Shown here in pieces: positions 13,024-50,229 of a stretch of 64,000 bases of DNA. Source of the DNA: Iphione sp. A-MEVVRFRX5. Taxonomy: Eukaryota. Position 1 is the stretch's first letter; the number at the start of each line of letters is the position of its first letter. The position numbers and the translations under genes are program-made. The stretch is from assembly GCA_976226885.1 (NCBI GenBank), contig OZ320323.1, positions 24,242,001 to 24,306,000 of the forward strand. Direction: 5' to 3'. The notes beneath the pieces were generated by a model. That model did no database searches. It worked only from the letters and a program-made list of their open reading frames with translations, and was not told the DNA's origin.

Positions 13024-13112
13024 CTTTGCTCTCGGTGCTACTGATCCAGTATTTTCCATGTTGTAAGGGGTTCCCATATAGTTCTTTTAGTCACTGACAG
13101 AGGGCAGCCAAA
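13024..13112. promoter_or_regulatory. Probable bidirectional promoter and non-coding first exon of the MFS gene (-), head-to-head with DXO (+)
   Basis: A strong - strand donor AAG|GTAAGT lies at 13023, and a matching acceptor ttccag| lies at 7435, 8 nt before the MFS ATG. The DXO ATG is at 13113. Confidence 0.6.
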
Positions 13113-27838: not shown

Positions 27839-30499
27839 CAGTCTAACCGCAAGAGTCTGGTCATATACCTGGAAAGAAAATCACCGACTGTGACTCACAG
27901 AGATGGTAGAAAATTAAAGGTTTTAGGTAGGAAGCACTTGAATATTGTATAAAAACTTCACATGATAATTTGTGTTGGAAGGAATTTCTATTTAATGACT
28001 CAGGATAACACCCCTGAGGTGCCAGAATACTCCACTTACTACTGCATAAAAATATACATTACTGTGGCAAGAAAACAAAATATACACATACACTCTCATC
28101 TATTAACATGTAAACAACTGTTGATCACCTTGGATACTGCATATTATATGATGCCTGATGAGCCACAATAGGCGAATCATTGAGAATTGCATATATGACG
28201 TGCTTATGACGAATATATCATGAGATATACGCTGATTGACAAGCAACAGACTGGAAAAACAACAATTCTCAATCACTATATAGTGGCAGTCATGGGAACT
28301 ATCAACACGAAGAACTTCCATGACCCTTGCAATTCCAATGGTAGTTGCAGGTGGAAGTATTGAACCTGAATAACCAGTGCAGCATCAGCCTGGTACAGTT
28401 CGTTTGCCAAATTTGTACTACACACGATAATGACTCACAGAGAACTTGAGAGGTCTATGGTCCCCATCTTGCTGTACACTAAAATGGAACAGACTATACC
28501 ATAGCTCCATCCTCTCACTAATGGGCTAAATGTTTTCCTTCTTTTCGCCTACAGCAAAATACATCACTGTTTGTCATTCAATGAATTAGCCATTTGTCAT
28601 TGAATCCGAGTTGTGGTTCCTTTCAACAACTATTTACCAAAATAAACCAATAGCAAGCAGAAAGGTGGTAAAATATAATACAAAATGCTGAATACTTTGG
28701 TCTTGAGGCTTGCAGTAATCCAAACTTTTCTATGCCTTTGTCACTCCCAACTAACAGCAAGCAAGGAAGACCGGGAAAGAAGGGCAGGGCACGCAACTAT
28801 TCCATAACCAAAGACACCTGATCAACCTTTCTTAAGGGGTCAAGGTCGTTGTGAAAGTTCTGTATTCATACTCTATACTGTAACCTGTGAACATATTTTC
28901 ACGCCTTTTCTTCTCTTGCAAACAAAAAATCTGGAGGCTGACTGAAGCACTACAGTGCAAAATACTGGTACAATTAAAAAAACCTCACAGATGTATGCGA
29001 TGATGCGGCAATGCCTCGCTTACTTATCATTTACTAAGTCATTTGCCCAGTACAAAAACTGATGTTTATAACACATTCCTAACACATCATTTATAGAGAT
29101 TGGGGTTGATGCCTCTCATTCCACTGAAACCTGAAGTTGTTATTCACTGGCGAAAGAGGTAGAGGTGAAGATATTAAAACTGCATGTCAACATGGAGTGA
29201 GTGAGGCACTGATGATAAAGTAATTACTACAACTACCTGTATTTAGTTCCTCACTGTCAGATATACTGACTGACAGTGAAACATCAACTTGAAGAGATTT
29301 AGTATAGAACATATTGACCATCTACTCTTTGAGGGTCGAAATTTTAACAAGGATGGTACTACAAGTTATAAAGGTAAAGCCTTAGGCCCGGTTTCCATAT
29401 CTGCAGCTGTGTCCAGGAATGTTGCAGTGCATTGTTGTGCGTATTTTTAGAACAGCTTGAAACCACTGGGAGGTGCTCCATAAGTGTGTTGTCTGGGTGC
29501 ATTGCAGTGTGTTCAGGTGCACTGTCTCATTTTCAAACACCGCCCAAAAATGAGCTGATCGCGAACAGTTGAAAAAACGTGTCATGTAGATGTACCGTTT
29601 ACTAGCTGTGACATCATAATGAGAATCGACCAATAGCATTGTTTACTTTTTGGACAATGTCACAATTTGGTACAAGGTACGTCCACAGCACCTGTTTCTT
29701 CAACGTTCAGTGATCAGCTCATTTTAAGAAAACCCTCACCAATGCATGAGCATATGGCAGATAAAATTTGTATAATGTAAGGATAATTAAGTGAACCTAT
29801 GTTAGATGAACTAAAAACATAATTACTACACATATCTCCACATTGCTAAACACTTCCTTGTTTCCGTATTAAATTCACCGGCTTAAGCACTTTTCCTCCA
29901 TCAAATGCACTGGTTTTAGCACTATCTGGCCCCCCAGTGGAGTATATGGACTCTTCTGCTCACACCAGAGGGTGCAGCAGAACGTGACCCAGTTACGCAC
30001 TGCCTCGACGCCAGTGACAGTCTGCACTGAACACTACCTAAAAAACCCTTACTTTCCACAGCTGTAACTCAGTCAGCTCTGCACAGAAATCTCTGATACT
30101 TTGAGCAAATAATGTTTAATATGTTACCTATACATACACTAAACAATTTCTTCCTAGCTTCCATAGTTTTTTTATAGTGGCCTGAGAAACATCCCCTTTT
30201 ATCTTCAGTTTACCAGACCTGCCATGTGTGCTTTGTTTGTAGAACCACAGCTTTGGCACTCTGTGCACTCATTGGCTATATCTAGATCACTGGCAAAATA
30301 TGCCTTATTGTATCAGGCTCAGAGAAAGGGTCCACTGAGAGATAGAACCACTTACACACCAATTCACATGGGTCCACACCCCAGGCTTCAACTCTCAGTA
30401 TGGGAGAACGCAGAGCTACCTCACAGTCACACCCCTGGGCAGTCATTGAGTCAAGCAGAACTGCTGAATACAACCACTGTAGGCTTTGTCTACTGCCCA

Positions 30500-31491: not shown

Positions 31492-34086
31492 TTTGAGATC
31501 TAAGTGACACCACTGCTTCTTCTTCAAAAATGATGATATGTGGTGATATGACTACCTCCTCTTCTTCTGTCCTCTTCTCAGGGGACAGTATAGATATGAA
31601 GGTAGGGGCAGGCTCAAGGACTTGTAGGGGAGTAGAGTGAGAGTGTCCTTTTACCTGTCCAAATGATCTCACGGGATCTACCTGTTTCAGGTGTCAAAAT
31701 GATGTCCTCTTCTTTCTGGCTCTTCTAATAAAGTCTTTCTTGATGTATTAAGAACTGAGTCTTGATATTCTTATAAGTATTTTAGAGATAGTTTGCTTTG
31801 GTTAGGTGACAGATAAATATGCTCTTCCTGAGTCCTTCTTCTTTTAACTGAATGATGTTATCTCATAGAATATCTAAATGTTCAGTTCTTGTAGGTGTAT
31901 ATAAAAGCCAGTAAATTGATGCATTTAAACTGTAATATATTTATTGGAGAATAGCACACAAGGGGTGACTACCTCCCTTCTGACAGCAGTAATGTATATA
32001 CAGTGTGGCAGAGTCACCAAAGTCAATGTGATACACCTGTAGTTTAGGTAATATGTAGCCTAGCAGGGGAAATATAGTCTGTCATAAACCAGCACTTCAC
32101 CAAAATGTCCAGTAGTTTCAACCAATATTGCAATGGAAGTGGTAACAGCAGTTCAACCAGTTTGTCCAGCAGTTTCAATATGGCAACGGTCAATAATGGT
32201 GGCAAACAGAGTTTTCAGTAACATGCAAACTAAAGTGTAGTTTCTACCTTCAAAATGCTTGTCCTGAGTGTCAGGGGTCCTAGGCTGGCAAGGTTCCTGG
32301 GCTGGAGACTGGTCCTGGTGGTGTTGCTGGTCTGACTCCCTCTGCCTGACTGATTTGTTTGGGGAAAGGGGGCTGCTTATAAGCACAGCTGGTCTCCAGG
32401 GTCCCTGGGGTTTGTTTGGCTCCATAGCTACAATGGTTAAGGCCCCTCACTCATGCCTGGGAGCTGACAGGGGAAGGAGGGCTGAAGGTGAGTGCTGTAT
32501 ACTACCTTGAATTTCTTATTTTATTTTGCAAAATGTGTATATTATTTGACTGCAAATGTTGTTGAGGGACTGCAGGTAAGTGCTGTAAATGTTTTTAGTC
32601 CACCAAACTGTGTTTTTGAGACTTATTCTGGATGTAGGGCTGAGTATATTATTGTGCTGTATATATGGGTCCCCCTGGGCTATAGGCACTGGAACCTGAC
32701 CTAGGAGGTGTACTCTGGGCAATAGGTTTTAGAACCAAAACTGGTGTTTCATCCATGTTAAAGCCATGTTTACCAGGGTTGCATTAAGGTGAATAATTTG
32801 TCAAACTTTTCTAAAATGTTTTTCTGGTTGAAATGAGTATTGTTTTTGTCAGGCTGTATATGTGGGTTCCCCTAGGCTATAGGCACTGGGACCTGACCTG
32901 GAAGGTGTACCCTGGGCTATAGGTTTTAGAGCCCAAACTGGAATTTTATTCATGTTGAAGTCATGTTTGTTAAGGTTGTATTAAGGTGAATGTTTTGTCA
33001 AACCTTTTTAAAATGCTTTCTTGTTGAAATGAGTGTTGTGTACTGTGTATCTGGGTCAATCCCTGGGGCTACCCTAGGCTGGAAGCTTGCTAAAACCTGA
33101 AGTAGGGTTTCTCTCATATTAGAACCAGGTTTTACTCTTGTTGTAGTAAGGTGAATATTTTGCTTTGACCATCTAAAATATTCTTCATGTTGGTATTTAG
33201 AATAATAATGGTTTTATTTTTGCCTGGCTGTCAAGAAAGGAAACTAGTTGGTTTGGGGTCTAAATACAGAATTTGGTCTACACTTGTATTTCCCTCTTTT
33301 TGATGTATATGTATATATTCTGATCATGGTCATATGTGTAGTATTTAAGTTTTTGTACATTGCTTTCTTGACATATGTTCTTTACTATATTTAATGTAAA
33401 GGGAGGAAGGGTATTGTTTTGGGTCAGGCTTGGTGGACATGTCTGGGCATGCAAAACAGGAAGTCACTTCAGGGGACACAGGAAGTCACTTCAGGGAGGC
33501 AGGGTTTGAGGCTAGTTTGTATTGGTGACCAATCACAGGGGGTCTTGCTTGGGAGGTAGGGCCTGGGGCTTGCCTATTGTTCCTTCCAGCTGGGTCCACT
33601 GAGGTAAGCTCCTTAGCTGGTTGCAAAGGGTACCACTGTGAAAGCAGCTTTAGAAAGCTCCCTTTAGCTAGTTCCATTGAGGCAAACTACTTAACTGGCT
33701 GTTAAAGCTTTTCTCAATAGATGTAGCTCAAGGCCTGAATAGACCTGCATGCAAAGGTCTTTTATTCAAGGCTTTTTGTTTAAAGGGAATTAGGCTTTAC
33801 TTCTTTTATATTGAATACTCCATTTGCCATTGACATTTTACAAGAAATACTGAAACTCCTTCATAAAATACACTTTCATATATATCAACATTCACATTCA
33901 TCTATAACTGTACTTTGAAACTGCATATAAAATATATTCCTATTTATCTTTACACTGTGTTGCCACTATTGTAATTAATGTATATGTTTGAATCATTTCA
34001 TACATATCAATCATAGGTACATACATTATCATATGCAATGAAAACTGAATCAGACATGAATATTTCTGAGGGTCCATAATCTAACA
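31492..34086 (-). repeat. 3' LTR (2595 bp)
   Basis: Direct repeat of 50231-52825. No differences were found in the blocks compared by eye, and the ORF track is duplicated exactly. It contains a ~195-bp imperfect triplication (32657-33190) and tandem CAGGAAGT sites (33457-33490). Confidence 0.97.
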
Positions 34087-34620: not shown

Positions 34621-37323
34621 TTAAACATCGGTAAGAGTCTCTGTTGAGTCAGCATACTTAGAGCTGAAGATGGATATGGCTTTGTTCTGTTGACGCTGTG
34701 GTTTGACTGGAGTGATTGAGGCTGCTTCATCGATCACATCGGTAGTATCAAGTTTCGACAGTAGGTCATGATACGCAGGTGGGTAAGACATGACAGACTC
34801 CGGCTTCTTGTTGGTTGGATGGGCAGAGGTAGAAGGAGTAGGAGTTGGACAGATGGAAGAGTGAGACATCAGGGGAGGTAGGGCTGGATAAATACCATTT
34901 TGCAATTTATGGGCAAATCCTTGTTGGCCAAGGAGGATTGAATAATGGGCTAATTCTTTAACAGTTTGTTCAATAAGATGGATCTTGCGACCTCGCCATA
35001 GGGGTAGGACAATGGTGGGTGGAAGGGTAACTCTACGGGTGATCTGTCCATCAGTACGGTAAAGGGGGCTGGAGTACTCAAGATGAAGTGAGTAGGAGAA
35101 ACACTTCTTAACTAAATTAATAGAGGTTATCTTTGGGAGGTGGAATGAAGTAGAGGGTTCAGCGTTAGTCCTGAATTCATGGAGTAACAAAGTGGTGTGG
35201 TTACGTGAGGTGCCCAGCTTGAGTAAAACTTGGAATCCAGATAGAGATATCACTGGACCTGTTGCAGTTGATTTATGAGAACAATATTTAATTACAGCAC
35301 GCATGAATCTAAAGAGTGCCCAGATAATAAACATTACTGCAGCAACGGTGGAGATCGTGTCCAGATGAGTAACTGTAACAGTCAATGCTTGTGGAGTGGC
35401 AGTAGTCACCGATGGTTCTGTTGGTCCTAATATTATAGGTGCTGCATCTGATAACTGATTAAGAGTTATAAGGAACATTAATCTGTTTGTTTTAATGGAG
35501 AGATAAATGACAATGATAGTCAATATAATAGTCAGTGCAGAGTGAATGCTATTCCATATCCAAATAAATGGGGTGGCAATCTCATTGGCTTTGGTAGTTA
35601 GCCAAATTGGCCAATGTTTCATCTCAGCTTCACGTTTGATTGCTAGCTCTCTTGTTTTTGCGATATCCAGGGCCACAGATTTTAAATCTAGTCCTGTGTT
35701 TTCTGGAAGTACTTGTGACAGATTCAGGAGTGGAGACTCTGGTAGAGCTATGTTAAATAGGTAGGAGTTGTTATAAGTGGAAGTCGCGGTGAAGTCTGGG
35801 AGAGATAAGTTGAAGTAAGCTGCTACTGGAAGGTTAATTCCATGGAGTGGTACTTCTGCTTGTGACATACCACAGGAGGTAGTTGCTTCAACTTCATATG
35901 GTCCCACTGTAAGTGTACAGTTGCAGGGGAGCTTGTAGGTGCACAATGAGCAATCCAAGTTAGTTTTAATATTATCACATGTAGTATACACTAGATTAGG
36001 TCCAGCAGAGATTAAGAATGTATCATTTAGTGAGAACACAGATGGAGACATAGTTTTATTAGAGTGAACTGTAAAGGTACACTTTTCAGTTGCTAAATCA
36101 AATCTATCAAAGAAAGTGGTACTGGCACAAGTGCTAAGGGTCTTCTTATTAGTGGGTGGTAACTTCGAACATGAGAGGATATCTTTACCATGACATAGCG
36201 TCATGTCAGCTAAGGTTAGTTCAATGAAGGATTGTTGATCTGGGGCAATGGAGATGTAATCTGGCATACTTCTGTGTTGTGTATATCCATATGATATAGG
36301 CGTAGCAAATGGTGCTCTGAATGTATGAATTCTGTAAAAGTCATGTATGTCAGTGGTCTTGCCAATAGGTACGGATACATGCATGTATAAGTATCTCTCT
36401 GAATACATGAATTGGGTGACTGAATGTTCGTAATAAAAGGCTGGGTCCTGAACTAATATCTTATCATTACCTGTCAGTAAATTCTGTACTTTACGGAGTC
36501 CATACTTAACCTGATCTGGACTAACAAGTATACCAGGTAGTCGGCCAGCATGGAGATCATTCAATGCCAAACGGAAATGTAGGAAGCTATCTTTTATTCT
36601 GTGTAGTGCAGCGATCTTGAGAATCAGGGAATCAAGGTACACTTGTATGTCTAGGCTAAAATCAATGGCTTGTGACTGGTTGGTCACTGCAAATATAAGT
36701 TGTTTATTGAGTTCAGTAGTACGTCTAGAAAGTGCCAATATGGCTGCATCATGTGATCTCATTTGCTTTGATAGGGCCTGTACTGCGATGGAGGATGAGT
36801 TGGCGAGTGCAGATAGCTGTGTCTGCAAGCTAAGTACCGCAGAGGGGTTGACTGATGCTGCAACTGTGTCTATTCTCCGTGCAAGCATTCTGATGTCTTC
36901 CATGGTAGCTGTACCAAATAGATATTTAGATGCTTTACCTACAAAACCAAACCAAGATCTAGGTTTCCTACCTTGAGAATCCTTGGTGGGTTTTGAAAGA
37001 AGTGCAGTAAGATGTAAGTTTTCCTGTCCTACTTCATGAAATAATTTGACACACATGTCATGGGTGTTGTCGAGAAAAGATGTTAGTCGAAGACATGCGG
37101 CAGTATCCCTACAGGGAAGATTTACACTGAGCGGGGAAAGACTATAGGTTGCAGGAAAGGATTTGGGTCTGGGTGAGACAAATAATAGATCAACCTTCTT
37201 GCTGTTTGTCAGAAGTGGGGTAGGCAATTTCTCAAAATATACTCCCAAATTCTGCCTAAGGATAAAGGAGGACTGGGTAGGAGCAAAGAGTAAAAGAAGA
37301 ATAAGAAGAGTGATGCCCCTCAT
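34621..37323 (-). CDS. env: Envelope glycoprotein, class I fusion protein of the errantivirus env/baculovirus F type, 900 aa
   Basis: Signal peptide; furin site RKPR (36969-36958) followed by the fusion peptide SWFGFVGKASKYLFGTATMED; heptad region; Cys-rich ectodomain; TM segment. A strong acceptor (tttctccctttcatttattccag|) lies 6 nt before the ATG. Confidence 0.92.
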   Translation of the reverse strand: MRGITLLILLLLFAPTQSSFILRQNLGVYFEKLPTPLLTNSKKVDLLFVSPRPKSFPATYSLSPLSVNLPCRDTAACLRLTSFLDNTHDMCVKLFHEVGQENLHLTALLSKPTKDSQGRKPRSWFGFVGKASKYLFGTATMEDIRMLARRIDTVAASVNPSAVLSLQTQLSALANSSSIAVQALSKQMRSHDAAILALSRRTTELNKQLIFAVTNQSQAIDFSLDIQVYLDSLILKIAALHRIKDSFLHFRLALNDLHAGRLPGILVSPDQVKYGLRKVQNLLTGNDKILVQDPAFYYEHSVTQFMYSERYLYMHVSVPIGKTTDIHDFYRIHTFRAPFATPISYGYTQHRSMPDYISIAPDQQSFIELTLADMTLCHGKDILSCSKLPPTNKKTLSTCASTTFFDRFDLATEKCTFTVHSNKTMSPSVFSLNDTFLISAGPNLVYTTCDNIKTNLDCSLCTYKLPCNCTLTVGPYEVEATTSCGMSQAEVPLHGINLPVAAYFNLSLPDFTATSTYNNSYLFNIALPESPLLNLSQVLPENTGLDLKSVALDIAKTRELAIKREAEMKHWPIWLTTKANEIATPFIWIWNSIHSALTIILTIIVIYLSIKTNRLMFLITLNQLSDAAPIILGPTEPSVTTATPQALTVTVTHLDTISTVAAVMFIIWALFRFMRAVIKYCSHKSTATGPVISLSGFQVLLKLGTSRNHTTLLLHEFRTNAEPSTSFHLPKITSINLVKKCFSYSLHLEYSSPLYRTDGQITRRVTLPPTIVLPLWRGRKIHLIEQTVKELAHYSILLGQQGFAHKLQNGIYPALPPLMSHSSICPTPTPSTSAHPTNKKPESVMSYPPAYHDLLSKLDTTDVIDEAASITPVKPQRQQNKAISIFSSKYADSTETLTDV

Positions 37324-37638
37324 ATTGATCTGGAATAAATGAAAGGGAGAAATTGAAGAGTGCTTATGGATATATGGCTTCTCCGGTCCTTTTATTAATG
37401 TTATGACTGTAGGTATCTTGGTATTGAGAATTCTATATCTAGCTATAATATATTGCCATCATACATGGAGTATGGTGTCTATAAAGCGACTTGCACTGTA
37501 GAGATCATTTGAATAGTATGCTGATAATTATGTCTTTTTTTGTTGACTAACGTGAATAGACTGCAAGGGATAGTTATGCTTTGCTACTGATTATGGGAGA
37601 ATCATATAAATAACATAAGGTGGACATGAAAATGATAT

Positions 37639-37929: not shown

Positions 37930-39039
37930 GATGTACTGGTTTTAGCTGTAGAATGAGTGTAATGGGTGGATGGATAAGTGAATACTGCCAATTGGCAAAA
38001 AGGAAAAAAAACTATCTTTCTGTAAATCCAAATGTTTCATAGGAAAATATGCTTAAAGAGAGTCATAATTCATATAAAGTTGGTGGATAGTAATAAGATC
38101 ATAAGATTGTTGGCAATTATTAAAACTGCTGACAAGGTTGAACTGCTGGACAAGTTGTGGGTGGCTACAGGTGAATGAATTCCTGCTGCCTAGTGAAAGT
38201 GGCAAAGACAACCCTACTGTAGATCCAGTTGACAGATTGATAAGTGTGGGCATAGAACAACCACTTAACGTGGTGAACCTTCAAAATGCAGCTACAAGGT
38301 TGTATTCTATATTAAATGAGAGTTCCTGATCCGCTTTTTCCATCATACAATTGATAGTACTGTAGAGTGAACATGAGAGTGGCTATAGTCAGTTAAATAT
38401 TGCTGATCGGAATAGTGGCAGAATGCTCTTTATGGCATGGTTGCCAGGGTGGATAATACTGATTAAATGGAACCTTACAATGCTGCTATAGGGGCGCATC
38501 TTATATCAAATAAAAGGTCTTGATCTGCTGAACATGTCTGTACCCTTATGTAGTGTTTAGGATGCAAATTGTAGCGTGTAGAGGGATTTGAATATCACTG
38601 ATCGGAAAAGCGGTGGCTGATTTATGTGGGTTAATTGTCACAAACCAGATTTTCTTTAGGGCCAACATATAGCCAAGTATCAAACCTTAATATTGGTCGT
38701 AGAGGGTCATATTTTATATCAAAAGGAAACTCTTGGCCTGCTTATTACATTGCTGTCATTAACACCATGATATCATACAGATTGTCGGCGGTAGGAAGGG
38801 TTAAATATCGCTGATCGGTAAAAGCGGCAGTGTAATTTCCTATGTTCACCTGTGGTAAGTATAAAAAAATGGATAGGAGTACTACATGTGTATAAGGCTC
38901 AGAATGTAGCTATGTGGACGTATTAGATATCAAATTAAAGCTCTATATCTGCCTTTTACGTTGATGTGATCTGTGTGATTGTAAGTTGAGTAGTGTGGCC
39001 GGTACAGCAAGTAGAAGATCGCCGACCGGCAAAGCGGCA

Positions 39040-39250
39040 TCGGGCGTTCACACATTTTAGTTGTCGCTCAGGTAGGGGAGGCACTCAGTAGCATTCACAG
39101 CTTTGGATCGGGGCATATGTTTAGCTATAAAAGTGAGGAGTTTCAGTGGTCTGGCGTTATTCATTGGAGGACGTCATGCTGGAACCTAGGAGCGCCGAAA
39201 CAGAGGAGTCAGAGGAACTTAATTTCAAGTCAAACTTCGAAGGTATAGTT
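39040..39250 (+). promoter_or_regulatory. Antisense promoter module 1 (TATA, Inr-like, GAGGACGT, 5' splice donor)
   Basis: GCGTTCACACAT at ~39044, TATAAAA at 39126, GAGGACGT at 39167 and donor AG|GTATAG at 39243. Confidence 0.6.
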
Positions 39251-39614
39251 TGCAAACATATTTCTCATGTGTATGAATGTTGGAAGATGACCTATACCTC
39301 ACTATTGGCCGTAGAGAGTCATGTTTGATATCAAATGAAAGCTTGTAATGTGACCTTTCCTTTGGTACCATCAGTGTTCCTGTACGTTGGGTATTGTGGA
39401 TGCTACGGCGAGTAAAACATCGCCGATCGGTAAAGCGGCTAAGTGCGGGCTTAGTCATGTGAAATTGGATGGTCTCTCAGTGAATTTTCAAGTTTGGAGT
39501 GTGTCTATATTACATTATAGTACAGGGATAGTAGATTTCGGTTTTGTAAATGAGAAGGAGGTAATTTTGTCAGGTATAGGTTCGGGGGGGGGGGGGTTGC
39601 CGACGTGCTTAGTT

Positions 39615-39830
39615 GGGCGTTCACACATCCTGGCTACCATCGCTTGAGCGGGGAAGCAGGAAACGTTTGGACAGAGACATAATTAACAGCTTTTGCAGCT
39701 TTTTGTAATTTAGGCTATAAAAAGGGGTGATTTCTGAGTTTTAGCACTATTTCAACAGAGGACGTAATGATGGAATTAGGACTCCTACGGATTCTGCTTG
39801 GCCGATTGGCTTAGCTTTTATCAGGTATGT
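39615..39830 (+). promoter_or_regulatory. Antisense promoter module 2
   Basis: GCGTTCACACAT at ~39617, TATAAAA at 39716, GAGGACGT at 39758 and donor CAG|GTATGT at 39825. Confidence 0.6.
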
Positions 39831-40349
39831 GCGCATATATCATTTCTACATATGTGAGCGTTTTAAGGCTTCTATCACGATTATTTCTGATTATAATATA
39901 GTATTTTGCTACTGGAAGCGACACACAGTTTACACATGGTTATTCCATATACATAATATATATATGGAACTAGATGTATTGAAGTTTTAGAACGACGCTA
40001 CATGGGTGTATTTTATATCAAATGAAAGGTCTTTTTGCACTGAACATTGCTGGACTTTTACTTCTTATATAGGATGTGTATTTTGAACGTGTAGAGGGTT
40101 TTGAATGTTGCCGAGCGGAAAAGCGGCGAGATACTGACTTACAAAGAGAGGACTTGGTATACTGGGTCAGGAAATGTACCTATAGGGTTGTATCATATGG
40201 AAATTCCCGATCTGCCCATTCCAATGGTGGTATCAGTGTGACTGTAAATTGAGTATTGTGGACGTTACAGCGAGTGAAACATCGCCGATCGGTAAAATAG
40301 TGAAATACTGCAATATATAGTGGGCCTGCCGCAGTACTTAGACAGGGGT

Positions 40350-40613
40350 AGCGTTCACACATTTTAATTACTGCCGCTCTGGTGGGGAGGCACAACCCAT
40401 CTATTCTGGTGGATTCACATAGTGGCGTTCACGGCTTTTCCCCCCTTTAGCTATAAAGGTGAGCGATCTTTAGAGTTCTTAAGGTATTTTCCAAGAGGAC
40501 GTCATGTAGTGACCAGGATACAGGTTCATGGAGACGCTCCAAGATTGCCAGTTCTTAACTGCCTGAGACACGGGAACTAATGGAAGAATTCACTTGTAAT
40601 ACCTAAGGTATGT
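40350..40613 (+). promoter_or_regulatory. Antisense promoter module 3
   Basis: GCGTTCACACAT at ~40351, TATAAAG at 40452, GAGGACGT at 40495 and donor AAG|GTATGT at 40608. Confidence 0.6.
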
Positions 40614-41663
40614 GCGCTGATATGATTTCTGTTTGTGTTAGCGTTTCTGGAATCCTTTTAGGTTGGGTAAGAGTGACTACATGTACGTGAAACTCAGAAT
40701 GTCACAACAGGGGTGTATTTTATATCAAATTGAAGCTTGTGGTCCGTCCCTTCTGCTGGTGGTCTCAGTATGATCATATTGTGAATACTATGGTCGGGGC
40801 GGCATATCAAACATTTGCCGATATATATTTATTTTATTTATTTATTTATTTTTTTTGAGGGGGGGGGAATAGGTTCCAGGTTGGACAACAGTGGATATAT
40901 GAGACTTAAAACGCCGCTACCTGGATGTGTTACATATCAATTTAAAGCCCTTGATCTGCTGGTTTTACTGGTAATGTCGGTTTAATTATATTGTGAATAT
41001 TGTGTCGTACTCACCCATGTCAGGGTATGTCCGTCAGCATATTTCTCATGTTTGTGAGGGTTGGCCTACGGCCGCCTATCTAATATTGATATTGGTGCTA
41101 GAAAGCCATATATAATATCAGTGAAGGCTCCTGGTTTGCTTGTTTCAAGGTAATACCAGTTTTGTCCTAGATGCTGGATCAGTTTAAATATCACCGATAA
41201 GCAGAGTGGTTGAACGCAAGTTTGATATGTTGTAATTTTGGTTGGGTAAGGGTGATCATATGCATATGAAACTAAAAATGTAACTAAATGGACGTATATG
41301 TGTCAAATTGAAGCTCATTTTCTGACGTTTTGGGTGATATACTTGGATTGGTTGTGCCATAAATATTGTGGGTGCTGCAGTGAGTTAAATATTATAGGTT
41401 GGTAAAACATGAAAATGCAAGTGTACACAAGTGTGTCTGCTGGAAATGAAGGTAGATTCAGGATGTGTCTACATAGGTGTATTAGATATCAAAGGAAAGG
41501 TACATTTCTTTAGCTTTGACAAAGTAAGGAGACAGATGTATCTTCCATTTACAAATCTTTATAGAATCATTACTTGACATTGGTCTCATAAAAATAGTGT
41601 CCATCTGTTTAAAAATAAAAGAAGATAAATGTTCTAAAATTGGTTTTCAGATGAAATGTCCAT

Positions 41664-42209
41664 TTAGTCCCAAATTTCTTGTTCTTCGGGCTCTATCTTA
41701 GGCCTGTATCCCGCAAAGTTCAGCCTCAGTTGTACTTCATACATGCCGAAGTCAAATGAAAAGAAATATTGGGTATAATCCCAGACAGCACTTTGAGCTG
41801 CGGTCTTCAAACTCATGCCGCTCCTTGCATGCTGGAAGGTGAGTAGAATAATGGAGTCCCATGCGGGATAGAAGTGGGTGGGCAGGTCGGGCTCCTGCCC
41901 TTTCTCCATGTACGTGTCCACCAAACTAATAACCGTCTGGCGGACCAAATTGTCCTGAAGTTGGACAAAGTTTCCTCTCCATGAGGGGAGGATGTCCAGG
42001 TCCAATGCTAGGTAAACATCGAATGTGTGAGACAGGGCCTCCAGCATTCCCTTTCTTGCTTCAGTTGAAATCTTGGGGTGGCGGATCCCTGTGTTCTTTT
42101 TAAGTAGATACGTCATGAGACGCACCGTACAATCTTTGGTGGTTGGTGGTATGCCTCTGTCTAACTGTTTTCCTCGGCGGTGGGCCCTCTTCATGGCTTT
42201 GCAAGGCAT
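41664..42209 (-). CDS. Accessory ORF A, 181-aa protein of unknown function
   Basis: Intact, non-repetitive ORF whose ATG directly follows a splice acceptor (aacctttcag|ATG). Confidence 0.75.
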   Translation of the reverse strand: MPCKAMKRAHRRGKQLDRGIPPTTKDCTVRLMTYLLKKNTGIRHPKISTEARKGMLEALSHTFDVYLALDLDILPSWRGNFVQLQDNLVRQTVISLVDTYMEKGQEPDLPTHFYPAWDSIILLTFQHARSGMSLKTAAQSAVWDYTQYFFSFDFGMYEVQLRLNFAGYRPKIEPEEQEIWD

Positions 42210-42366
42210 CTGAAAGGTTGATGTTCTTTGGATAAGAAAGAGGATTTCCTCGAGTGACAGGTATAGTGATCCTTGTTTGAGCTTTAGAGAGGGGAGTGAG
42301 GCAGAGGTTGTGAGATGTTTTTGCCTTTTTTTTTTCCGGGGATAACCAAGGTATCTTTACGTAAGC

Positions 42367-42402
<36 letters not shown>

Positions 42403-43587
42403 AATGATTTGTTAATTTGATTCTTCCATTTATTTTTCTACTTGTAGTCTAGGTATGATCGTACATAATGCTGCTGAACTGACTGAACACTTCTTTACTT
42501 GCTGATTTATGGAGAGGTGATTATGAAGGTACATAAGCCAAAAATAGATAAAATAAGGCTCTAGTTCTAAAGTAAAGGTAGTCTGAACCACAGTAAATTA
42601 ACCCTATCCTCCCAGAAGGTGGACAAAGATTCGCGTCTTATATGGCCTCTAGGCTGCGCCAACCTACAGCCCCATTTTTCCATAAAGGAAAAACTGCTGG
42701 AGTTAATCACTGCCTATTAGATGTATACTTTGAAAAGAATAGAGGATGTGTGATGTCTTACAGGCCTCTAGGCTGCAAAATCACTCCTCTCTTTTGAGAA
42801 CTCTTCATCAGTACATGACTAAATTTTGGTAGATTTGAAGATGGAATAGAAAGAACAGGTGAGTTGATCAGGCTCTTCTGCCTTCCAGTAGAACATGCCT
42901 CAAATAATTTTGCATATTATCTCTACATGATTCCATACTGAAGTGAGATGGTACTAGACATACAATTGGCAAAACAATTATTTGGCAAAATAAGGCTAAG
43001 TAATTAAAGTATTTTTCAATAATGTATCAATCTATCCTGATATATACTAACTCATGTAAAATCTGAAAACATACTGTTTCAGAGCCACATTGACTGTATA
43101 AATCATTTAGTTTTCTTTTCTGTCCTTCTTTACTGATTCATTTCTGGTTCAACTCGCTGGTATACCGGTTTTACTGTGCAGATAAACTATATACTTTTCA
43201 TCTTCCTAATAAGTAGTCCACATATTGGATCTGATATCTGATATGCTTTAACTATGTTTCTCTTTCTCTGCAGCGATTCAACATCCTGCCAGGAAAGTTT
43301 TAGTTGTATGAAGGTATCTTTTGGCCTCAAGCGTGAAAGAACCATTCACACTAATTATATTACAAATTCAATCTGTGTTCTGCACATTACATCACTTTTC
43401 TGTCAAATTAATTTATCCTAGCATTTTACAAGTCAATTTTGAGTGTGTCTTTAAACACACCTTATCTCAACTTCTCATCATAATAAAAGACCTTATGCCT
43501 ATGCTTTTTGCCTAAGTAATGTTTTAGTACTTATCTCATAAAAAGATGTTTTAAAACCTGTGTATAGTTTAAAATCTTGTTCTCAAT

Positions 43588-46095
43588 CTATTTGTTTGCT
43601 TTCTTGCTTACGTTAGGAGATCTCATACGTTGGAGAAATTTCCAAAATCTTTTTGGCTTCTTAATCTCAGGTTCAGAAGTGTCAGACAGTTCATCATTCT
43701 CTTCATTATCTAATTGAGTTTGATCATGTTCTGTTAGAAGTACAGGTCTACGTGTTCTGCTGCGGAGGTTATATGCTGGTGCATCTGTCCTGGGAAGATC
43801 CTTTTGAGATCCGCTGCAAGAGTCCATGATTGGAGCAGTCTTCACAGGTTTGGCTTGGTGATCTTGTCTGAGTAACCATACGTTTTCATCTGATTGATGT
43901 TCTTGCTCTTTAGTTGACCCAATAGATGTATCTTTAGTAATTTCTTGCTCTGAAATATTTTCTTTAGAGAGGATTTGGGGTGAGGGTGTCACAGGACTCT
44001 CACTTACAGTTTCTTTGATAAGTCTGGCCAATGGCCCATCTTCATATTCCTCATGTACATTTTCTTCTGGCTTAGTTTCCTCTTTTGAATTTTCCTCTCT
44101 CAAAGAAATCAGATCATTATTGTCTTTAACAGGTGGATCATCAGGGTGTGAGTCAACAGTCACTGTATCCTCTGGATCTTCAGGACATCCCCCTTGACAG
44201 GCGTCTCCTAGTTCTTCTGCTTCATCCAGGACTGGAGAGGGTCTTTGTGGTGGTATATCCTCAGGCTCTTCTGGGATTGCATTTAGTGAGGAGGGAGGTT
44301 TATCTGTGAGGTGCTGTCTGCGAGATGAGATGGGTTTGTCTATGGAGGGTGAGCTGGGTGTCTCAAAACTGTCGGGGGGTAGATCTTCAGCCCTTATTTT
44401 CTCTAGATTTGAATTCTCATTTATCACTGGGGGTACTGAACCTGTTTTCTTTAATCTACTGATAGTTACAGATCTAGCAAGGTGCCGTTTTGTCTGTAAG
44501 CATTTTAGATACACTGTACACTCAGTTTGGAATCCTGTAATAACATAGGGTCCATGATACACTTTTCCTAGTTTTAGTTTGAGTGAGCTATCTTGTAGCC
44601 TGGGTACATATAGCCAAACAACATCACCAACCTTTAAGTCAGGTTTGTAGGTATGCTCATCATGTCTGTCTTTCATGTCTTGCGCAGCTTTATCAGAAGT
44701 TTCTAGGGCAGCTTTATGCGCTGTATGTTGTTGTTGCAAGTGTTGAGCAAATCGCTCTTCTACAGGCATAAGTTCATCATTAGGGACAGGGATAGAGTTC
44801 ATTTCTGGACGTCGAGGCTCATACCCATGTAGAAGTAGGTAAGGAGTTTGTCCAGTTCTGGTAGCTTTAGTAGTGTTTAGGGCAAAGCATATTGAAGGGA
44901 GGTAACAGTCCCAGTTATTCTGATATTTGCTAATATAATTCCTGAGAACTGTTAGGAGAGACCGATTTGCTCTCTCTACCAACCCTGAAGTTTGGGGGTG
45001 ACCTGCAGTGGCAAATTTCTGTTTAATTCCATTTTCTCTGCAATAACTTAGGAAGCGGTTTGAGATAAAAGCAGAGCCATTGTCAGAGACAATAGTATTG
45101 ACAATACCAAATCTGTAGACAATATGCTCCTTAAATTTTGATATGAGTGTGTCTGCTCTGAGATCTGGCTGTGCCCATGCAACCAGAAATCTACTATAAT
45201 AATCTACAACAGTAATAATATGCCTATTATCATCTTTTGTAGTGGGTAAGCGTTCAATAGCATCCATGTTAATAGTATGCCAAGGTGCAGGAGCAGGGTC
45301 CCTAAGGGTGAGTGGGGGTCGGATAGGTCTTGTCATTCTTTTAGTCTGGTTACATTTGATGCATGTAGCACAATAGTCATGAACATCTTCACTCATCCCA
45401 GGCCAGAATAATGTCTCTCTCATTTTAGTTAACATTTTGACTGGACCTAGGTGACCAGCATGTACTGCATCATGATTTTGTTGGAGAAATTTCTCTCTCA
45501 GATGAACGGGAACAACTAATCGCACATTGGTTTGAGCATTCGGCCCTGTAGTTGAGGACATTTTAAATAATATATTTTCATAAAGGAAATAGTCTTCCTC
45601 CCTTAAAAGAATCTGTCTAGCCATTTTATCATCATCTGGGAGTCTACCAAATTTGATAAAGGCCACAGTTTGTGCACAGAATGTGTCCTGCTTTTGAGCT
45701 TCTAAAAGATCATTTAGAGGGACATGGGATGATTTTAGATGGTTTTCGGCACCTGAGTGAAGGACAAATTGTCTCTCTCTTCTCTTACGGTGGTTAGGGC
45801 CTCTTTTGGTGAGGAGGGGATCTGATGGCCTAGGTTGAGGAGTAGTTGGGGTGTCTCTAACATGGACTACATTGGTAGGAATAGGGGAAGAGTTCAAGTC
45901 TTCTGGTGATTGTTCAGTAGGACCTGTCCATATCTGATCTTTTTCTGGGGGAACATCTAATCTGGATAAAGTATCCGGGACTACATTTAGGTTGCCTGCT
46001 ACATGTTCAATGGTATAATCAAATCTTTGAAGAAATTCCATCCATCTAACAACACGACTATCTTTATGTTCAAGAGTTTTGCTAACTAGAATGTG
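43588..46095 (-). CDS. pol: pol 3' part: RNase H end/connection, integrase (HHCC, DDE, GPY) and a long acidic tail
   Basis: HDAVHAGH...CATCIKC zinc finger; WHTINMD...VVDYYSRF...SDNGSAF...SGLVERANR catalytic core; YHGPY. It is separated from the upstream pol by a 1-nt frameshift at T5 46096-46100. Confidence 0.95.
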   Translation of the reverse strand, partial: HILVSKTLEHKDSRVVRWMEFLQRFDYTIEHVAGNLNVVPDTLSRLDVPPEKDQIWTGPTEQSPEDLNSSPIPTNVVHVRDTPTTPQPRPSDPLLTKRGPNHRKRRERQFVLHSGAENHLKSSHVPLNDLLEAQKQDTFCAQTVAFIKFGRLPDDDKMARQILLREEDYFLYENILFKMSSTTGPNAQTNVRLVVPVHLREKFLQQNHDAVHAGHLGPVKMLTKMRETLFWPGMSEDVHDYCATCIKCNQTKRMTRPIRPPLTLRDPAPAPWHTINMDAIERLPTTKDDNRHIITVVDYYSRFLVAWAQPDLRADTLISKFKEHIVYRFGIVNTIVSDNGSAFISNRFLSYCRENGIKQKFATAGHPQTSGLVERANRSLLTVLRNYISKYQNNWDCYLPSICFALNTTKATRTGQTPYLLLHGYEPRRPEMNSIPVPNDELMPVEERFAQHLQQQHTAHKAALETSDKAAQDMKDRHDEHTYKPDLKVGDVVWLYVPRLQDSSLKLKLGKVYHGPYVITGFQTECTVYLKCLQTKRHLARSVTISRLKKTGSVPPVINENSNLEKIRAEDLPPDSFETPSSPSIDKPISSRRQHLTDKPPSSLNAIPEEPEDIPPQRPSPVLDEAEELGDACQGGCPEDPEDTVTVDSHPDDPPVKDNNDLISLREENSKEETKPEENVHEEYEDGPLARLIKETVSESPVTPSPQILSKENISEQEITKDTSIGSTKEQEHQSDENVWLLRQDHQAKPVKTAPIMDSCSGSQKDLPRTDAPAYNLRSRTRRPVLLTEHDQTQLDNEENDELSDTSEPEIKKPKRFWKFLQRMRSPNVSKKANK

Positions 46096-48859
46096 TTTTT
46101 AGAGGGTTATGGTCAGTTTGAATGAGGAATTTAGCTCCCTCTAGGTAGACACGCCAATGCTTCACTGCATAGAATATGGCTGCCATTTCCTTGTCAGTAG
46201 TAGAATAGTTTAATTGAGCACCTTGAAATGCCTTTGCCCAAAAAGCAACAGGTCTCAAGTTTCCCTGTTTGTCTATTTGTGAGAGACTAGCTCCCATTCC
46301 ATAATTACTTGCATCAGTGGCTAAATAGAATTCTTTGTTAAAGTCTGGGTATAGCAAAAGTTGATCATCTAATAATGCCTTTTTGAGAGTTTGAAATGCT
46401 TCTTCTTGTTCTGGTCCCCAGAAAAATTTCTTGTTACTTTTCTTAGTCAAATCATATAAGGGTTTTGCCTTTAGACCATAGTTAGGAATAAATTTCCTGT
46501 AATATCCAGTCATTCCCAAAAATCTTCTAACTTGCCTAACTGTAGCTGGGGTTTTTAGATCCTTGATTTTGCCAACATTGTCTGGGGAGGGTTTAAGTCC
46601 TTCAGTGGTTAGAATATGTCCTAAAAATTTGACTTCTGATCTACCTATGTCACATTTAGATGGTTTTAACTTTAGGCCTGCTTGGATCAGTCTGTCTAAA
46701 ACTTGTTCCAGATCAGCCATATGTCTCTCAAATGTAGGGGAGAAGACAACTATATCATCCATGTATGCTAAACAAATCTTATATTTCAATCCAGAAAGTA
46801 CCATGTCAACAATACTCTGGAATGAGGCTGGTGAGTTTTTGAGTCCCATAGGCATAGTTTTATACCTGAATTTTCCTGAAGGGGTTAGGAAAGCTGTCTT
46901 GTCTCTATCTTGATCACGAATAGGAATTTGATGGAAACCCATCTCTAAATCCATAACTGAGAGAAATTTAGGTTTGTTATGTCCTATGGCATCTATTGTA
47001 TCATCAACTCTAGGGATAGTAAACATTTGGGTAACAGTTTGGGAGTTTAGATTTCTGTAGTCAACAACTAATCTAAATTTTCCATTAGGTTTAGGAACTA
47101 AGAAGGCAGGACTGGCCCATGGACCATCTCCGGCTTCTTCAAGTATTCCCTTGTCTCTCTGATCATAAACTATTTTATCTAGCTCTTCCCTCATATTCGG
47201 TGACATGCGGAAAGGTTGGGCTTGAGTGGGATATGCATCTGGGACTAATTCAATACGGTGCTCAACTAAATGTGTCCTACCAATATCTCCTTTCAATACA
47301 AATGCATCCCTTTTAGATTGGAGTAAATTCATACAAATTTCTTTCTGTTCTTCAGTGAAGTTTGATTGAGACAGGTCAATAGGGATATCAGAAGGGGTTG
47401 AATGTTGGATAGAGTTAACTTCAGTGTTAGTCTTAAAGGTGTAGGGAATACCTTTAGTAAATGTACCAATTCTTAGTCCTTTCCTAAGTTGTTGGGGTTT
47501 GTCAGAATAGTTTAGAATGGAGACGGGGATATGATTTCCTGAAACTTTCACAAGTGCTTCTCTGTTTGAGACTATTTTTCTTGGGGTGGACTTAAGTGTG
47601 TCCTCAAATATTCCTTCATATGAGTCTAGGCACTGACCATCGGACAATATTTGGGCCCACACAAAGGTTTCAGAGAGGGGTTCTAAGAGTATGTCATCAG
47701 GTAGGGCTGTTGGGTAATGGGCAGGAGGTCTAGGACCAAATGACAGGTTCATGGAGAACTGGTGTAGGAAGTTTCTCCCAAGAATGATATCATAGGCTAG
47801 TCCCTCAATGACATGTAATAAGACAGGATATTTATGGTCATCAATGGGAATATCAAACTGAGCAATGTATGAGGCCTTAGTGGTTGTTCCATTGGCCATA
47901 ACACACTCAGCTTTAGAAGGGAGTATGTTCATGTCAAACCCATTTTCCTGCAATTGATTGAAAACCTTAGAACTAATGCAGCAACCTTCAGCTCCTGTGT
48001 CAATAAGCGCAACAACAGATACCTTTCCCAAATCAAGTTTGGTACAACAGGCATTTGTTAATGAATGGTGAATAGTTTCAGTTTTGCCTTCTGAGATTTG
48101 TTGGGTCCAGGACATATAGACACATTTTTCCTTTTGTGAAGTAGTGTATGAGTTAGCTTTAGAAATAATGCCAAAAATTTCATTAGTTTTTGAAGGGAAG
48201 TTAAAGTCTTGATAAATTTGGTGGTCATGAATTTCATCGGGGAGGATCAAGTGTTCACCATTCAAAGGACAACATGGAATTCTGTTACACCTAGGTTTGA
48301 GTACCTTCCTAGTTATCTCACTACTCAGTGATTTAACCTTGTCATGTACACAGATTTCCATGTATTCATAGTCACACTTGCAGTTACCATGTTTATGGTC
48401 AATAATTGCCATTCTTAAGGCCATAAGAATAGCATATTCAAGGCTGTTGACACAGAGTCCTTCTGCAACTTGACAGTCACACTGAGGTGTAATGTTACCC
48501 TTCTCATCAGTTTTAACAACACATATACAATGATTTGGGCAATGTGAGCAATCAAACCTTAAATGTCTATTGGCAGGGATATTTGCGTCCTGCTTGTCCT
48601 GTACCTTAGTCTTGGACTTTTTGCGTGTAGGGCGGCTGGGGCAAAGAGGATGTGATTTAATTGTATGATATTTCAAACTCTTAACCCAACTAAGTCTTTC
48701 CTCAGGCTGGGGAGGTAGAGGTTTTGTTAGAATTAGAACTGTCAGTTTCTCATCAGGATCAGTTTTAGAAAAATCATTATCCTTGGGCTTGCTTTGGTCC
48801 TTATTCTGAGATCCAGGTAGAGACTCCCAATACTTGGGCTCATTGGAAGTCCTTCCTAG
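46082..48859 (-). CDS. pol: pol 5' part: transframe Cys-rich region, aspartic protease, RT and RNase H
   Basis: The frame is open from the slippery site at 48859. Protease LIDTGA (DTG 48001-47993) and IILGRNFL; RT WASPAFLV..KFRLVVDYR and YMDD (46765-46754); RNase H TDASNYG..YSTTDKE..TDHNPL. Confidence 0.96.
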   Translation of the reverse strand, partial: LGRTSNEPKYWESLPGSQNKDQSKPKDNDFSKTDPDEKLTVLILTKPLPPQPEERLSWVKSLKYHTIKSHPLCPSRPTRKKSKTKVQDKQDANIPANRHLRFDCSHCPNHCICVVKTDEKGNITPQCDCQVAEGLCVNSLEYAILMALRMAIIDHKHGNCKCDYEYMEICVHDKVKSLSSEITRKVLKPRCNRIPCCPLNGEHLILPDEIHDHQIYQDFNFPSKTNEIFGIISKANSYTTSQKEKCVYMSWTQQISEGKTETIHHSLTNACCTKLDLGKVSVVALIDTGAEGCCISSKVFNQLQENGFDMNILPSKAECVMANGTTTKASYIAQFDIPIDDHKYPVLLHVIEGLAYDIILGRNFLHQFSMNLSFGPRPPAHYPTALPDDILLEPLSETFVWAQILSDGQCLDSYEGIFEDTLKSTPRKIVSNREALVKVSGNHIPVSILNYSDKPQQLRKGLRIGTFTKGIPYTFKTNTEVNSIQHSTPSDIPIDLSQSNFTEEQKEICMNLLQSKRDAFVLKGDIGRTHLVEHRIELVPDAYPTQAQPFRMSPNMREELDKIVYDQRDKGILEEAGDGPWASPAFLVPKPNGKFRLVVDYRNLNSQTVTQMFTIPRVDDTIDAIGHNKPKFLSVMDLEMGFHQIPIRDQDRDKTAFLTPSGKFRYKTMPMGLKNSPASFQSIVDMVLSGLKYKICLAYMDDIVVFSPTFERHMADLEQVLDRLIQAGLKLKPSKCDIGRSEVKFLGHILTTEGLKPSPDNVGKIKDLKTPATVRQVRRFLGMTGYYRKFIPNYGLKAKPLYDLTKKSNKKFFWGPEQEEAFQTLKKALLDDQLLLYPDFNKEFYLATDASNYGMGASLSQIDKQGNLRPVAFWAKAFQGAQLNYSTTDKEMAAIFYAVKHWRVYLEGAKFLIQTDHNPLKTHSS

Positions 48860-48865
48860 TTTCCC
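48822..48865 (-). other. -1 programmed ribosomal frameshift signal
   Basis: G GGA AAC heptamer (48865-48859) directly before the gag TAG, a 7-nt spacer, then a 10-bp stem GACUUCCAAU/AUUGGGAGUC. The -1 frame is open into pol. Confidence 0.88.
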
Positions 48866-50187
48866 GAATTTGGTCTAATTGCCTGGGAAAGAGCCTCGAT
48901 ACTTCTTTGCATCTGGCTCATATTCACTCTCATAATGCGCATTTGTTCTTCCAAAGGGTTGGGGTAGGATTGCTGGTTAGAATGATCTGGATTTTGGTAA
49001 TAAGTTGGACCATAATTTTGAGGGGGATAGTTATTCCTAGGCTGTCTGGGGAGAGGAGTAGGTCTAGTAGGTTGTCCCCTGGGAGGTGGAACTGTGGGAT
49101 CTCCCATTGCTCTCCTTTTTGAATAACAGTCTCTCTCATAATGTCCCTTCTTTTGACAGTAATAACACTGAATATCAGGTCTAGGAGGTGGGTTATTAGA
49201 AGTTCTCCTGGGTGGACGTTTATTTGTTTCCCTTTGCTCAGAAGTGGAGGGAGTGGGCCCTGCTTGTTTAACCTGAAAGGCCATGATTTTTCCGGGGAGA
49301 TCTCTAGAAAGTTTCTCTGAGAGGTCCTCTAACATTTTCTCTACATTAACTATACTGGCTGCATTTTTCACTGTTCCTTGCAAACTTTTCCATGCTCTTC
49401 TAGCATCAGTAAGAGAGTCATTGAAAGAAGGAACTGTTCTATGTTGCATTGATGCTCTTACTTCTGGTAGAATATTTTCCATAAAAATCCTACCCACTTT
49501 ATCATCGTCCTCTATCCCAGCTAATGAGCAGGCTTTCAAAAGTCTTTCCCCAAAGACTTGGGGTGGCTCACCTGATTTCTGTTTGGTATTTTTCATTTTC
49601 TCAACTAATTCATAGCTAGATGGGCCCTTCTCCTTTAGGATATAAGATTTGAGATCGTCCCAGTTTGGGTGATAGTTGATATGGATATACATATGTCTAG
49701 GGAAAAAGCTCTTAGATTTAGAATGGGCCTTTTCCTCCCAATCATCCCCATATAGTTCTTCCATGTATCTCTCATATTCATGTATCCAGTCAGCTACAGC
49801 ATAAGGGTCAGAGGGGAAATCACTAGGTCTTTTAGGAGCGCATGTAAGTTTCATAGCAATTTGATCAACCAAATCGCTCCTTGCCTCAGCTATACCAGCA
49901 TTAGCACCAGGTTGGCCTCCCTGTGCCATTACCTCATTCGCACCCCCAGGCATGATCAAGACAAGGTTAGGACTTACTGGTTCTGTAGTTGGTTGTCTTG
50001 GAGCCGGCTGGGTAGATCTAGGAGCACTGGTTGTAGTCTGGCTTTTTGAAGACTTGTTCCCTCTGGGTTCCCTGGGTTTTCTTGAAGGTAGGGGAGAAGT
50101 AGCCCTCTGGGATGACTTGGATGGACCTCTCAGGCTTGACTTGGACTTGTCCTGGGATGTTTTACTCCGGGTGATCCTATCTGCCAT
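48856..50187 (-). CDS. gag: gag, 443 aa, with a CCHC zinc knuckle
   Basis: Retrotransposon capsid-like region (WIHEYERY...W..LK..IL..; QKSGE....FGERL) and CYYCQKKGHYERDC. It starts 25 nt after the PBS. Confidence 0.95.
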   Translation of the reverse strand: MADRITRSKTSQDKSKSSLRGPSKSSQRATSPLPSRKPREPRGNKSSKSQTTTSAPRSTQPAPRQPTTEPVSPNLVLIMPGGANEVMAQGGQPGANAGIAEARSDLVDQIAMKLTCAPKRPSDFPSDPYAVADWIHEYERYMEELYGDDWEEKAHSKSKSFFPRHMYIHINYHPNWDDLKSYILKEKGPSSYELVEKMKNTKQKSGEPPQVFGERLLKACSLAGIEDDDKVGRIFMENILPEVRASMQHRTVPSFNDSLTDARRAWKSLQGTVKNAASIVNVEKMLEDLSEKLSRDLPGKIMAFQVKQAGPTPSTSEQRETNKRPPRRTSNNPPPRPDIQCYYCQKKGHYERDCYSKRRAMGDPTVPPPRGQPTRPTPLPRQPRNNYPPQNYGPTYYQNPDHSNQQSYPNPLEEQMRIMRVNMSQMQRSIEALSQAIRPNSGN

Positions 50188-50211
50188 GCACTGTCTCTGT
50201 CAGGTATAGAT

Positions 50212-50229
50212 TACCCGGGTTCTCCACCA
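50212..50229 (-). other. Primer-binding site complementary to a tRNA-Ala 3' end
   Basis: TGGTGGAGAACCCGGGTA, 1 nt from the 5' LTR. Its complement ends GUUCUCC-A-CCA, with the U70 and A73 expected of tRNA-Ala. Confidence 0.8.

Follow-up and report, generated by a model that had tools for sequence, protein, structure and literature searches.

What are three copies of a promoter-like, exon-like and splice-donor-like sequence doing inside an LTR retroelement, on the strand opposite to its genes? The question is raised by the window, by which we mean the whole stretch of 64,000 nucleotides from Iphione sp. that was analysed. An earlier note had proposed that each copy drives a spliced non-coding host transcript with microRNA hairpins clustered in its intron. 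The element and its parts are as follows.

31492 to 52825, minus strand: LTR element of 21.3 kb that hosts the modules, delimited by LTR comparison
31492 to 34086, minus strand: 3' LTR of 2595 bp, 100% identical to the 5' LTR
34621 to 37458, minus strand: env, an open frame of 945 amino acids with a signal-peptide-like start and an RKPR furin-type site
38190 to 41500, no strand assigned: hypervariable non-coding array of 12 unit matches (u) and 3 modules (M) in the order uuuuMuMuuMuuuuu
41664 to 42356, minus strand: ORF3, an accessory protein from a family of about 190 amino acids with the motifs G.RHP, FFNL and P.LP..F.P.WD
42572 to 42726 and 42807 to 42948, minus strand: two non-coding blocks common to both groups of related elements (A and B, below)
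43250 to 43275, plus strand: best candidate splice acceptor, score 13.4, with branch-point-like words
43588 to 48874, minus strand: pol, with protease, reverse transcriptase (RT), one Ty3-type RNase H (RH), and H2C2 and rve integrase
48856 to 50199, minus strand: gag with a CCHC knuckle
50214 to 50229, minus strand: primer-binding-site-like sequence, beginning TGG and adjoining the 5' LTR
50231 to 52825, minus strand: 5' LTR of 2595 bp

Because the two LTRs are identical and a 4-bp target-site duplication lies outside both, the insertion is very recent, and the pol of this copy is broken into two frames near 46090. The named matches of RT and RH are Ty3/gypsy-type retrotransposon proteins (36–45% identity). 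The gene order, gag, pol as PR-RT-RH-IN and then env, is that of env-bearing Ty3/gypsy elements, and the LTRs, target-site duplication and primer-binding-site-like sequence that define errantiviruses operationally are all present. An F-type envelope is indicated by a match to Baculo_F (PF12259; E 4.4e-6) whose 26 bits barely exceed the cut-off of 24.1, and a search for env homologues by sequence found none. Judged by these features, the element fits the operational definition of an errantivirus, an env-bearing Ty3/gypsy element, as worded in the main text of PMC13524379. The LTR at 31492–34086 also contains a 197-bp tandem duplication and strong plus-strand donor-like sites at 32488 and 32576. 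Elsewhere in the window are host genes for an MFS transporter (3318–5890), DXO/RAI1 (exons in 13098–17310) and GPANK1 (26756–27880, apparently a single exon), and an ORF fragment at 11330–11785 that we take to resemble the GIY-YIG end of a Penelope-like element.

Within the array, units and modules are placed as follows.

38271 to 38429, 38461 to 38620, 38676 to 38830 and 38888 to 39045, plus strand: units 1 to 4, upstream of the first module
39044 to 39250, plus strand: module 1, with upstream motifs, TATA at 39126, Inr-like A at 39159, GAGGACGTCATG at 39167 and a degenerate donor GT at 39243
39300 to 39445, plus strand: unit 5
39617 to 39862, plus strand: module 2, with TATA at 39716, Inr-like A at 39749, box at 39758, donor CAG/GTATGT at 39825 and a short exon
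39975 to 40135 and 40158 to 40308, plus strand: units 6 and 7
40351 to 40645, plus strand: module 3, with TATA at 40452, Inr-like A at 40486, box at 40495 and donor AAG/GTATGT at 40608
40683 to 40821, 40896 to 41004, 41078 to 41215, 41261 to 41411 and, partial, 41455 to 41501, plus strand: units 8 to 12

A motif scan of 30000–53500 reproduced every motif and coordinate that had been reported for the three copies, all of them on the plus strand and antisense to gag-pol-env. Each module motif occurs exactly three times in that interval and on the plus strand only: GCGTTCACAC at 39044, 39617 and 40351, GGGGA[GA]GCA at 39075, 39650 and 40384, GCTATAAA with its TATA at the listed positions, the A of an Inr-like TATT, and GAGGACGT at +41, +42 and +43 from the TATA. 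Ranked with an approximate textbook matrix among the 1527 plus-strand GT sites of the element, donors 2 and 3 come 12th and 13th, and donor 1 (AAG/GTATAG) is weak, at rank 110. The ATG of the module is part of the box, and frames running from it to the donor share no common phase and mostly contain stops, in agreement with the claim that the exons are non-coding. Across the 1.18-Gb genome, the pattern TATAAA-N34-37-GAGGACGTHATG gave 16 matches against 1 for a reversed control, and all 16 lie in array-bearing elements; a weaker control within the window gave 2 TATA-to-box matches against a shuffled mean of 0.08 and maximum of 2 (200 shuffles).

We used a profile scan to examine the module family. 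We trained it on 23 modules chosen for their TATA and box, two near-duplicate loci having been dropped before the scan, and recovered 39 full modules and 2 partial ones; 29 of 30 related elements had a match. Nineteen elements carry one module, eight carry two and two carry three, which is the upper end for the family. The order is TATA, an initiator-like YA at +31 to +34, the GGACGTCATG box, an exon of variable length and an AG/GTATGT donor, always antisense. The TATA lies 38–43 nt upstream of the box in 34 of 39 modules. A YA, whose position played no part in module selection, lies 9 nt upstream of the box in 31 of 39, with TCAKTY (at most one mismatch) in 22 of 39. The TATA-to-YA distance is 29–35 nt with a mode of 33, so that the motif spacing, loss of which in other copies was to count against the proposal, is conserved in the family. 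Donors have GT in 39 of 40 cases and G at +5 in 38 of 40, although these sites were located by best match, which together with the selection inflates part of the module conservation counts. Their variants are mostly tolerated ones, namely GTAAGT (4), GTGAGT (1), GTAGGT (2) and GTACGT (1), and the exon side is weakened in two modules, both with a GTAAGT donor. Exon length varies by indels, and both exon ends hold. The upstream motifs are traits of subfamilies (GCGTT[CG]AC in 18/39, GGGG[AG][AG]GC in 10/39).

In TATA-Inr promoters the TATA lies about 30–34 nt upstream of the initiator, and this distance is found across the module family. The 5' splice site likewise obeys U1 pairing across the family and is weak in module 1. 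Given the conserved spacing and donor, the variable exon and the unphased frames, the module has the appearance of an antisense promoter under constraint, followed by a first exon that does not code for protein, and we consider that the modules probably are antisense Pol II promoters of this kind. A DPE reading of GGACGT was rejected on position. That element is of GGACG type at +28 to +33 with the initiator A 27 nt upstream of GGACG, the distance is wrong here, and a YA stands at the required place in only 3 of 39 modules; the box falls at about +10 to +20 from the TATA-linked start. With the CA that follows it, GGACGT presumably resembles a CRE half-site.

Alternatively, the module might be a derived copy of the old repeat-motif family to which the units belong, acting only as a DNA-binding or nucleosome-positioning site, with the TATA and donor being look-alikes. 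Several observations agree with this possibility. The donor lies inside a conserved block of about 90 nt, conservation reaching about 35 nt to each side of it, and repeats of an unrelated contig show a weak likeness to the 5' half of the block (E 0.014 and 0.13). The exon contains an H-box-like word, the spacing of units is near that of the nucleosome repeat, and an 11-nt A/T periodicity has a permutation P of 0.002 that ignores autocorrelation; a periodicity in conservation is not significant (P 0.27). The block may also be conserved for some other reason. However, the TATA-to-YA spacing and the donor variants obey Pol II and U1 rules, and length changes occur only in the exon. We therefore regard the look-alike explanation as unlikely.

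If the modules are antisense promoters, transcripts would begin at about 39159, 39749 and 40486, use the module donors for splicing and traverse ORF3, pol and gag on the opposite strand. No conserved plus-strand acceptor common to groups A and B was found downstream of the modules. A second candidate lies at 42446, and neither this site nor the one at 43272 has an aligned counterpart in the env-less group B. The two blocks that both groups do share downstream of the modules (42572–42726 and 42807–42948) are not acceptors; their consensus folds better on the minus (genomic) strand, and they are a candidate packaging or translation signal. Paired changes, possibly forming a pseudoknot, are visible in them by eye.

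We compared the array with those of related elements. No second close copy of it occurs in its own genome, only patches of 65–95% identity at about 26 loci. Group A comprises 10 of the 26 loci fetched, with env, ORF3 or integrase mostly 87–99% identical to those of the window and one copy decayed. Group B comprises most other loci, which are env-less, have 40–55% pol identity and in many cases a deleted pol. LTR pairs are 99.7–99.96% identical in the four elements whose LTRs were measured in full. One group B element (L034, approximately G000:C4:13014811-13027893) is a non-autonomous element of about 13 kb with LTRs 99.96% identical and the array kept, and in its single long ORF the protease region is joined to the zinc-binding region of integrase.

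Between siblings that are otherwise 92–98% identical, the array differs almost completely, and that of the window has no colinear alignment with any sibling. Identity to seven siblings averages 97% in env, drops to less than 12% alignable at 38200 and recovers at 41500. We expressed array sharing as the fraction matching at 90% identity or more in 156 element pairs. Sharing was 1.0, 1.0 and 0.23 in the three pairs with flanks above 98% identity, averaged 0.012 in the 16 pairs with flanks of 96–98%, and was at most 0.01 at lower flank identity. Shared blocks lie at shifted offsets, and unit order is scrambled rather than colinear even in close pairs. The nearest unit within the same element is never more than 74% identical (135 units), which indicates no recent duplicates.

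Units are also found beyond this element family, in unrelated gypsy families, in either orientation and without the module. A distant family with 36% pol identity (L074:4700-5772) carries five units antisense in its 5' leader and shares its primer-binding-site sequence with the window's element, and another has one sense-oriented unit, placed upstream of an ORF with C2H2 zinc fingers. Other gypsy families (L079, L080 and L072) combine accessory ORFs of the C2H2 zinc-finger type with one unit; an antisense ORF is present in L079, and L072 has its own F-type env. A scan of viral contigs gave 0 matches and one of metagenomes gave 2, of which one is a real unit and one a chance match to bacterial coding sequence. 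A foreign contig of 1.1 kb (L092:1-1147) holds one homologous unit (39.8 bits) plus further internal repeats, which we take to be Helentron-like, and a kinship in sequence between the units and Helentron/HINE repeats is likewise our impression.

ORF3 adjoins the array. It has no database homologue and no Pfam, PDB or BFVD match, yet the family has at least 150 matches in its own genome, with 1–4 paralogues after pol in high-copy related gypsy families, and ORF3 appears to found an accessory family that is as yet unnamed. A model from a 37-sequence alignment is predicted with confidence to be all-alpha (pLDDT 84, pTM 0.79), and a fold search with it gave no match (best VIA, Z 5.2), a result that says nothing on novelty or function. 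A histone fold, which we had considered, was abandoned, as the single-sequence model was useless (pLDDT 41) and the alignment-based one had no match.

These features allow a reading in which ORF3 binds the units, protein and array co-evolving against host silencing as in the VANDAL transposons. Besides the adjacency and the paralogues in related families, a tandem array of about 202 bp with a related inverted core follows ORF3 paralogues in three copies of another gypsy family. However, among 20 ORF3-family loci fetched from the at least 150 matches, unit-like matches occur in 5 and marginally in a sixth, and the module in none. ORF3 is not seen in the env-less group B or in other unit-bearing families, it remains 94–96% identical among siblings whose arrays differ wholly, and its predicted fold gives no clue to DNA binding. 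A VANC-like role for ORF3 is thus possible, not favoured, and the co-evolution that it would imply is decidedly unlikely.

Turnover of this kind might instead come from a dedicated diversity generator, that is, targeted hypermutation or site-specific cassette exchange that rewrites the array. The borders of the array are sharp, and sharing is 100% where the flanks are 99% identical and about 1% where they are 96–98% identical, as such a device might produce. Nevertheless, the substitution spectrum of the units has the same shape as that of the flanks, with no directional bias of the ADAR or APOBEC type. Block ends lie near the main box in 15 of 49 cases against 13 expected (the pairs are not independent), the lack of colinearity in close pairs does not fit, and no recombinase domain was found among the five ORFs. 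Neither ADAR/APOBEC-type bias nor site-specific crossover was seen, and a generator of either sort seems very unlikely.

The microRNA reading, in which pre-miRNA hairpins lie in the intron of a host transcript started by each module, depends on the nature of the units. Promoter, exon and donor do precede repeated units, and the unit contains a short imperfect inverted repeat. However, the "hairpin units" do not behave as hairpins. In 13 elements, stable stem-loops were found in 16 of 672 plus-strand windows against 21 of 672 after shuffling, and in 1 against 0 on the minus strand; the lowest plus-strand folding z in the window's array is −2.1. RNAalifold predicted no consensus pair on either strand for 40 units, although the same method finds structure at 42572–42726. 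Rfam has no match in the array, its single match in 31000–53000 being a simple repeat outside the element. Many units stand upstream of any module, 4 of 12 here and, in 23 of 25 elements, three or more. One array window alone folds strongly (39890–39980, z −5.6, minus strand), between donor 2 and unit 6. On folding against shuffles and consensus folding, pre-miRNAs and conserved RNA or ssDNA structure in the units were rejected, and we regard the microRNA reading as highly improbable. What stands of the original proposal, through family conservation, is the antisense Pol II promoter with its non-coding first exon and donor; the intronic miRNA cluster falls with the hairpins. Least credible of all is that the TATA is a sense-strand splice acceptor for env (TTTTATAG on the minus strand), which we reject because, although the module lies upstream of env on that strand and often reads as pyrimidines followed by TAG, 9 of the 34 modules whose TATA is intact lack the AG, and modules are kept in env-less elements.

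The units are likewise not protein-coding. Most are stopped in every frame, and they recur every 180–210 nt (mode 190) with no preference for multiples of three. One frame per strand does stay open more often than in shuffled sequence (18 and 23 of the 89 units, against 4.6 and 6.3), and 66–71 of the 89 are closed even in these best frames. The array has no plus-strand ORF of 100 amino acids, and tandem repeat calling found none over the units. Mean identity among units is 54% with no covarying helix, and yet exactly 91 nt separate the two boxes in 70 of the 89 units that have both. This fixed spacing without pairing, together with independence of orientation, suggests that the unit is a DNA element recognised by a protein of the host, and the units likely act as protein-binding DNA. 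The array moreover retains CpG (observed/expected 0.71) beside an LTR nearly free of it (0.02; pol 0.19).

Taken together, the likely antisense promoters and the likely protein-binding units, in an array that differs almost wholly between copies of an env-bearing Ty3/gypsy element, form a reading that we favour on balance. The array itself is best read as a zone of regulatory cassettes that template switching reshuffles and in which selection likely favours novelty. Bound to the units, host factors would hold the zone open. Units from a large old pool would be reshuffled as reverse transcription switches between co-packaged RNA templates; homologous switching is the simplest mechanism, and the pool would greatly exceed the copies that this assembly contains. 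New arrays might be favoured by escaping small-RNA silencing aimed at the regulatory zone, and near-identical neighbouring units would be deleted during reverse transcription. Rather unlikely is the further idea that the array is a private regulatory "barcode", that is, a lineage-specific, antisense-transcribed array of promoter cassettes and nucleosome-sized ones that draws on a pool common with unrelated gypsy families, small RNAs directed at the array of one copy failing to recognise that of another; if true, the cis-regulatory DNA of a transposon would undergo a form of antigenic variation. The array is unique to each insertion, so that reads can be traced to individual copies. The reason for the rapid divergence of non-coding regulatory zones in transposons, and the part that small-RNA silencing may play in driving it, thereby become open to test.

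Among known elements, the ancient errantiviruses described in the main text of PMC13524379 are alike in having LTR-gag-pol-env, PR-RT-RH-IN, an F-type env and multiple young copies, whereas the present element has a length of 21 kb, 2.6-kb LTRs, the accessory ORF3 and the array. LTR calling in that study was limited to 14 kb, and its main text makes no mention of antisense, microRNA, splice or UTR. The element thus widens the known size and gene content of env-bearing gypsy elements and adds a new accessory protein family. It is not a lokiretrovirus, which, according to the available text of PMC7947760, has a tether, a second RNase H and a vertebrate host, as here one Ty3-type RNase H is followed by integrase; a search of its own genome for connexin, run without a positive control, found none. 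Together with a further gypsy family of this genome that carries an F-type env, this suggests that the host is an animal and probably an invertebrate, and a vertebrate MHC setting, to which GPANK1 and DXO had seemed to point, was dropped.

Internal antisense promoters are known in other retroelements. In the available text on HeT-A of Drosophila, such a promoter lies in the 3' non-coding part and the antisense RNA is non-coding and spliced (PMC2615633), and in that on the Ty3/gypsy element micropia, a testis antisense promoter yields antisense RNA covering RT (PMC6797199). By analogy, the modules likely work like these promoters, although here there are 1–3 paralogous TATA/Inr modules per element in a reshuffled array, and the modules are known from sequence.

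The array itself has partial parallels. Retand/Ogre elements, as the available text of PMC11963269 presents them, share a long 3' internal region, variable repeat arrays, antisense activity and non-autonomous members. Theirs, however, are family-specific tandem repeats with antisense ORFs (TRP28), unlike the present units, which are about 54% alike, common to families, never recent duplicates and accompanied by no antisense ORF that we found. With no tandem repeat called, nearest units within an element at most 74% identical and no plus-strand ORF of 100 amino acids, a 3' tandem array of the Retand/Ogre type was rejected. The target repeats of VANDAL/VANC, in the available text of PMC5735166 and PMC10398659, are also fast-diverging non-coding repeats beside an accessory gene for which escape from small RNAs has been proposed, but they belong to a plant DNA transposon for which binding has been shown, whereas here ORF3 does not track the array and the system is known by sequence. 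Helentrons and HINEs have central repeats of 140–180 bp that are similarly nucleosome-sized and form arrays variable between related flanks, but they are another class of element (available text of PMC7492417). By analogy, the array is best described as located like that of Retand/Ogre and evolving like VANDAL target repeats, while a member of neither. The literature searched, mostly without subscription papers, holds no multiplied promoter/first-exon modules in an array that is replaced within about 2% divergence and has boxes at fixed spacing. Internal antisense promoters and variable 3' arrays were already known separately in retroelements; what appears new is their combination here, and the unexpected feature is the near-total turnover of the array between siblings.
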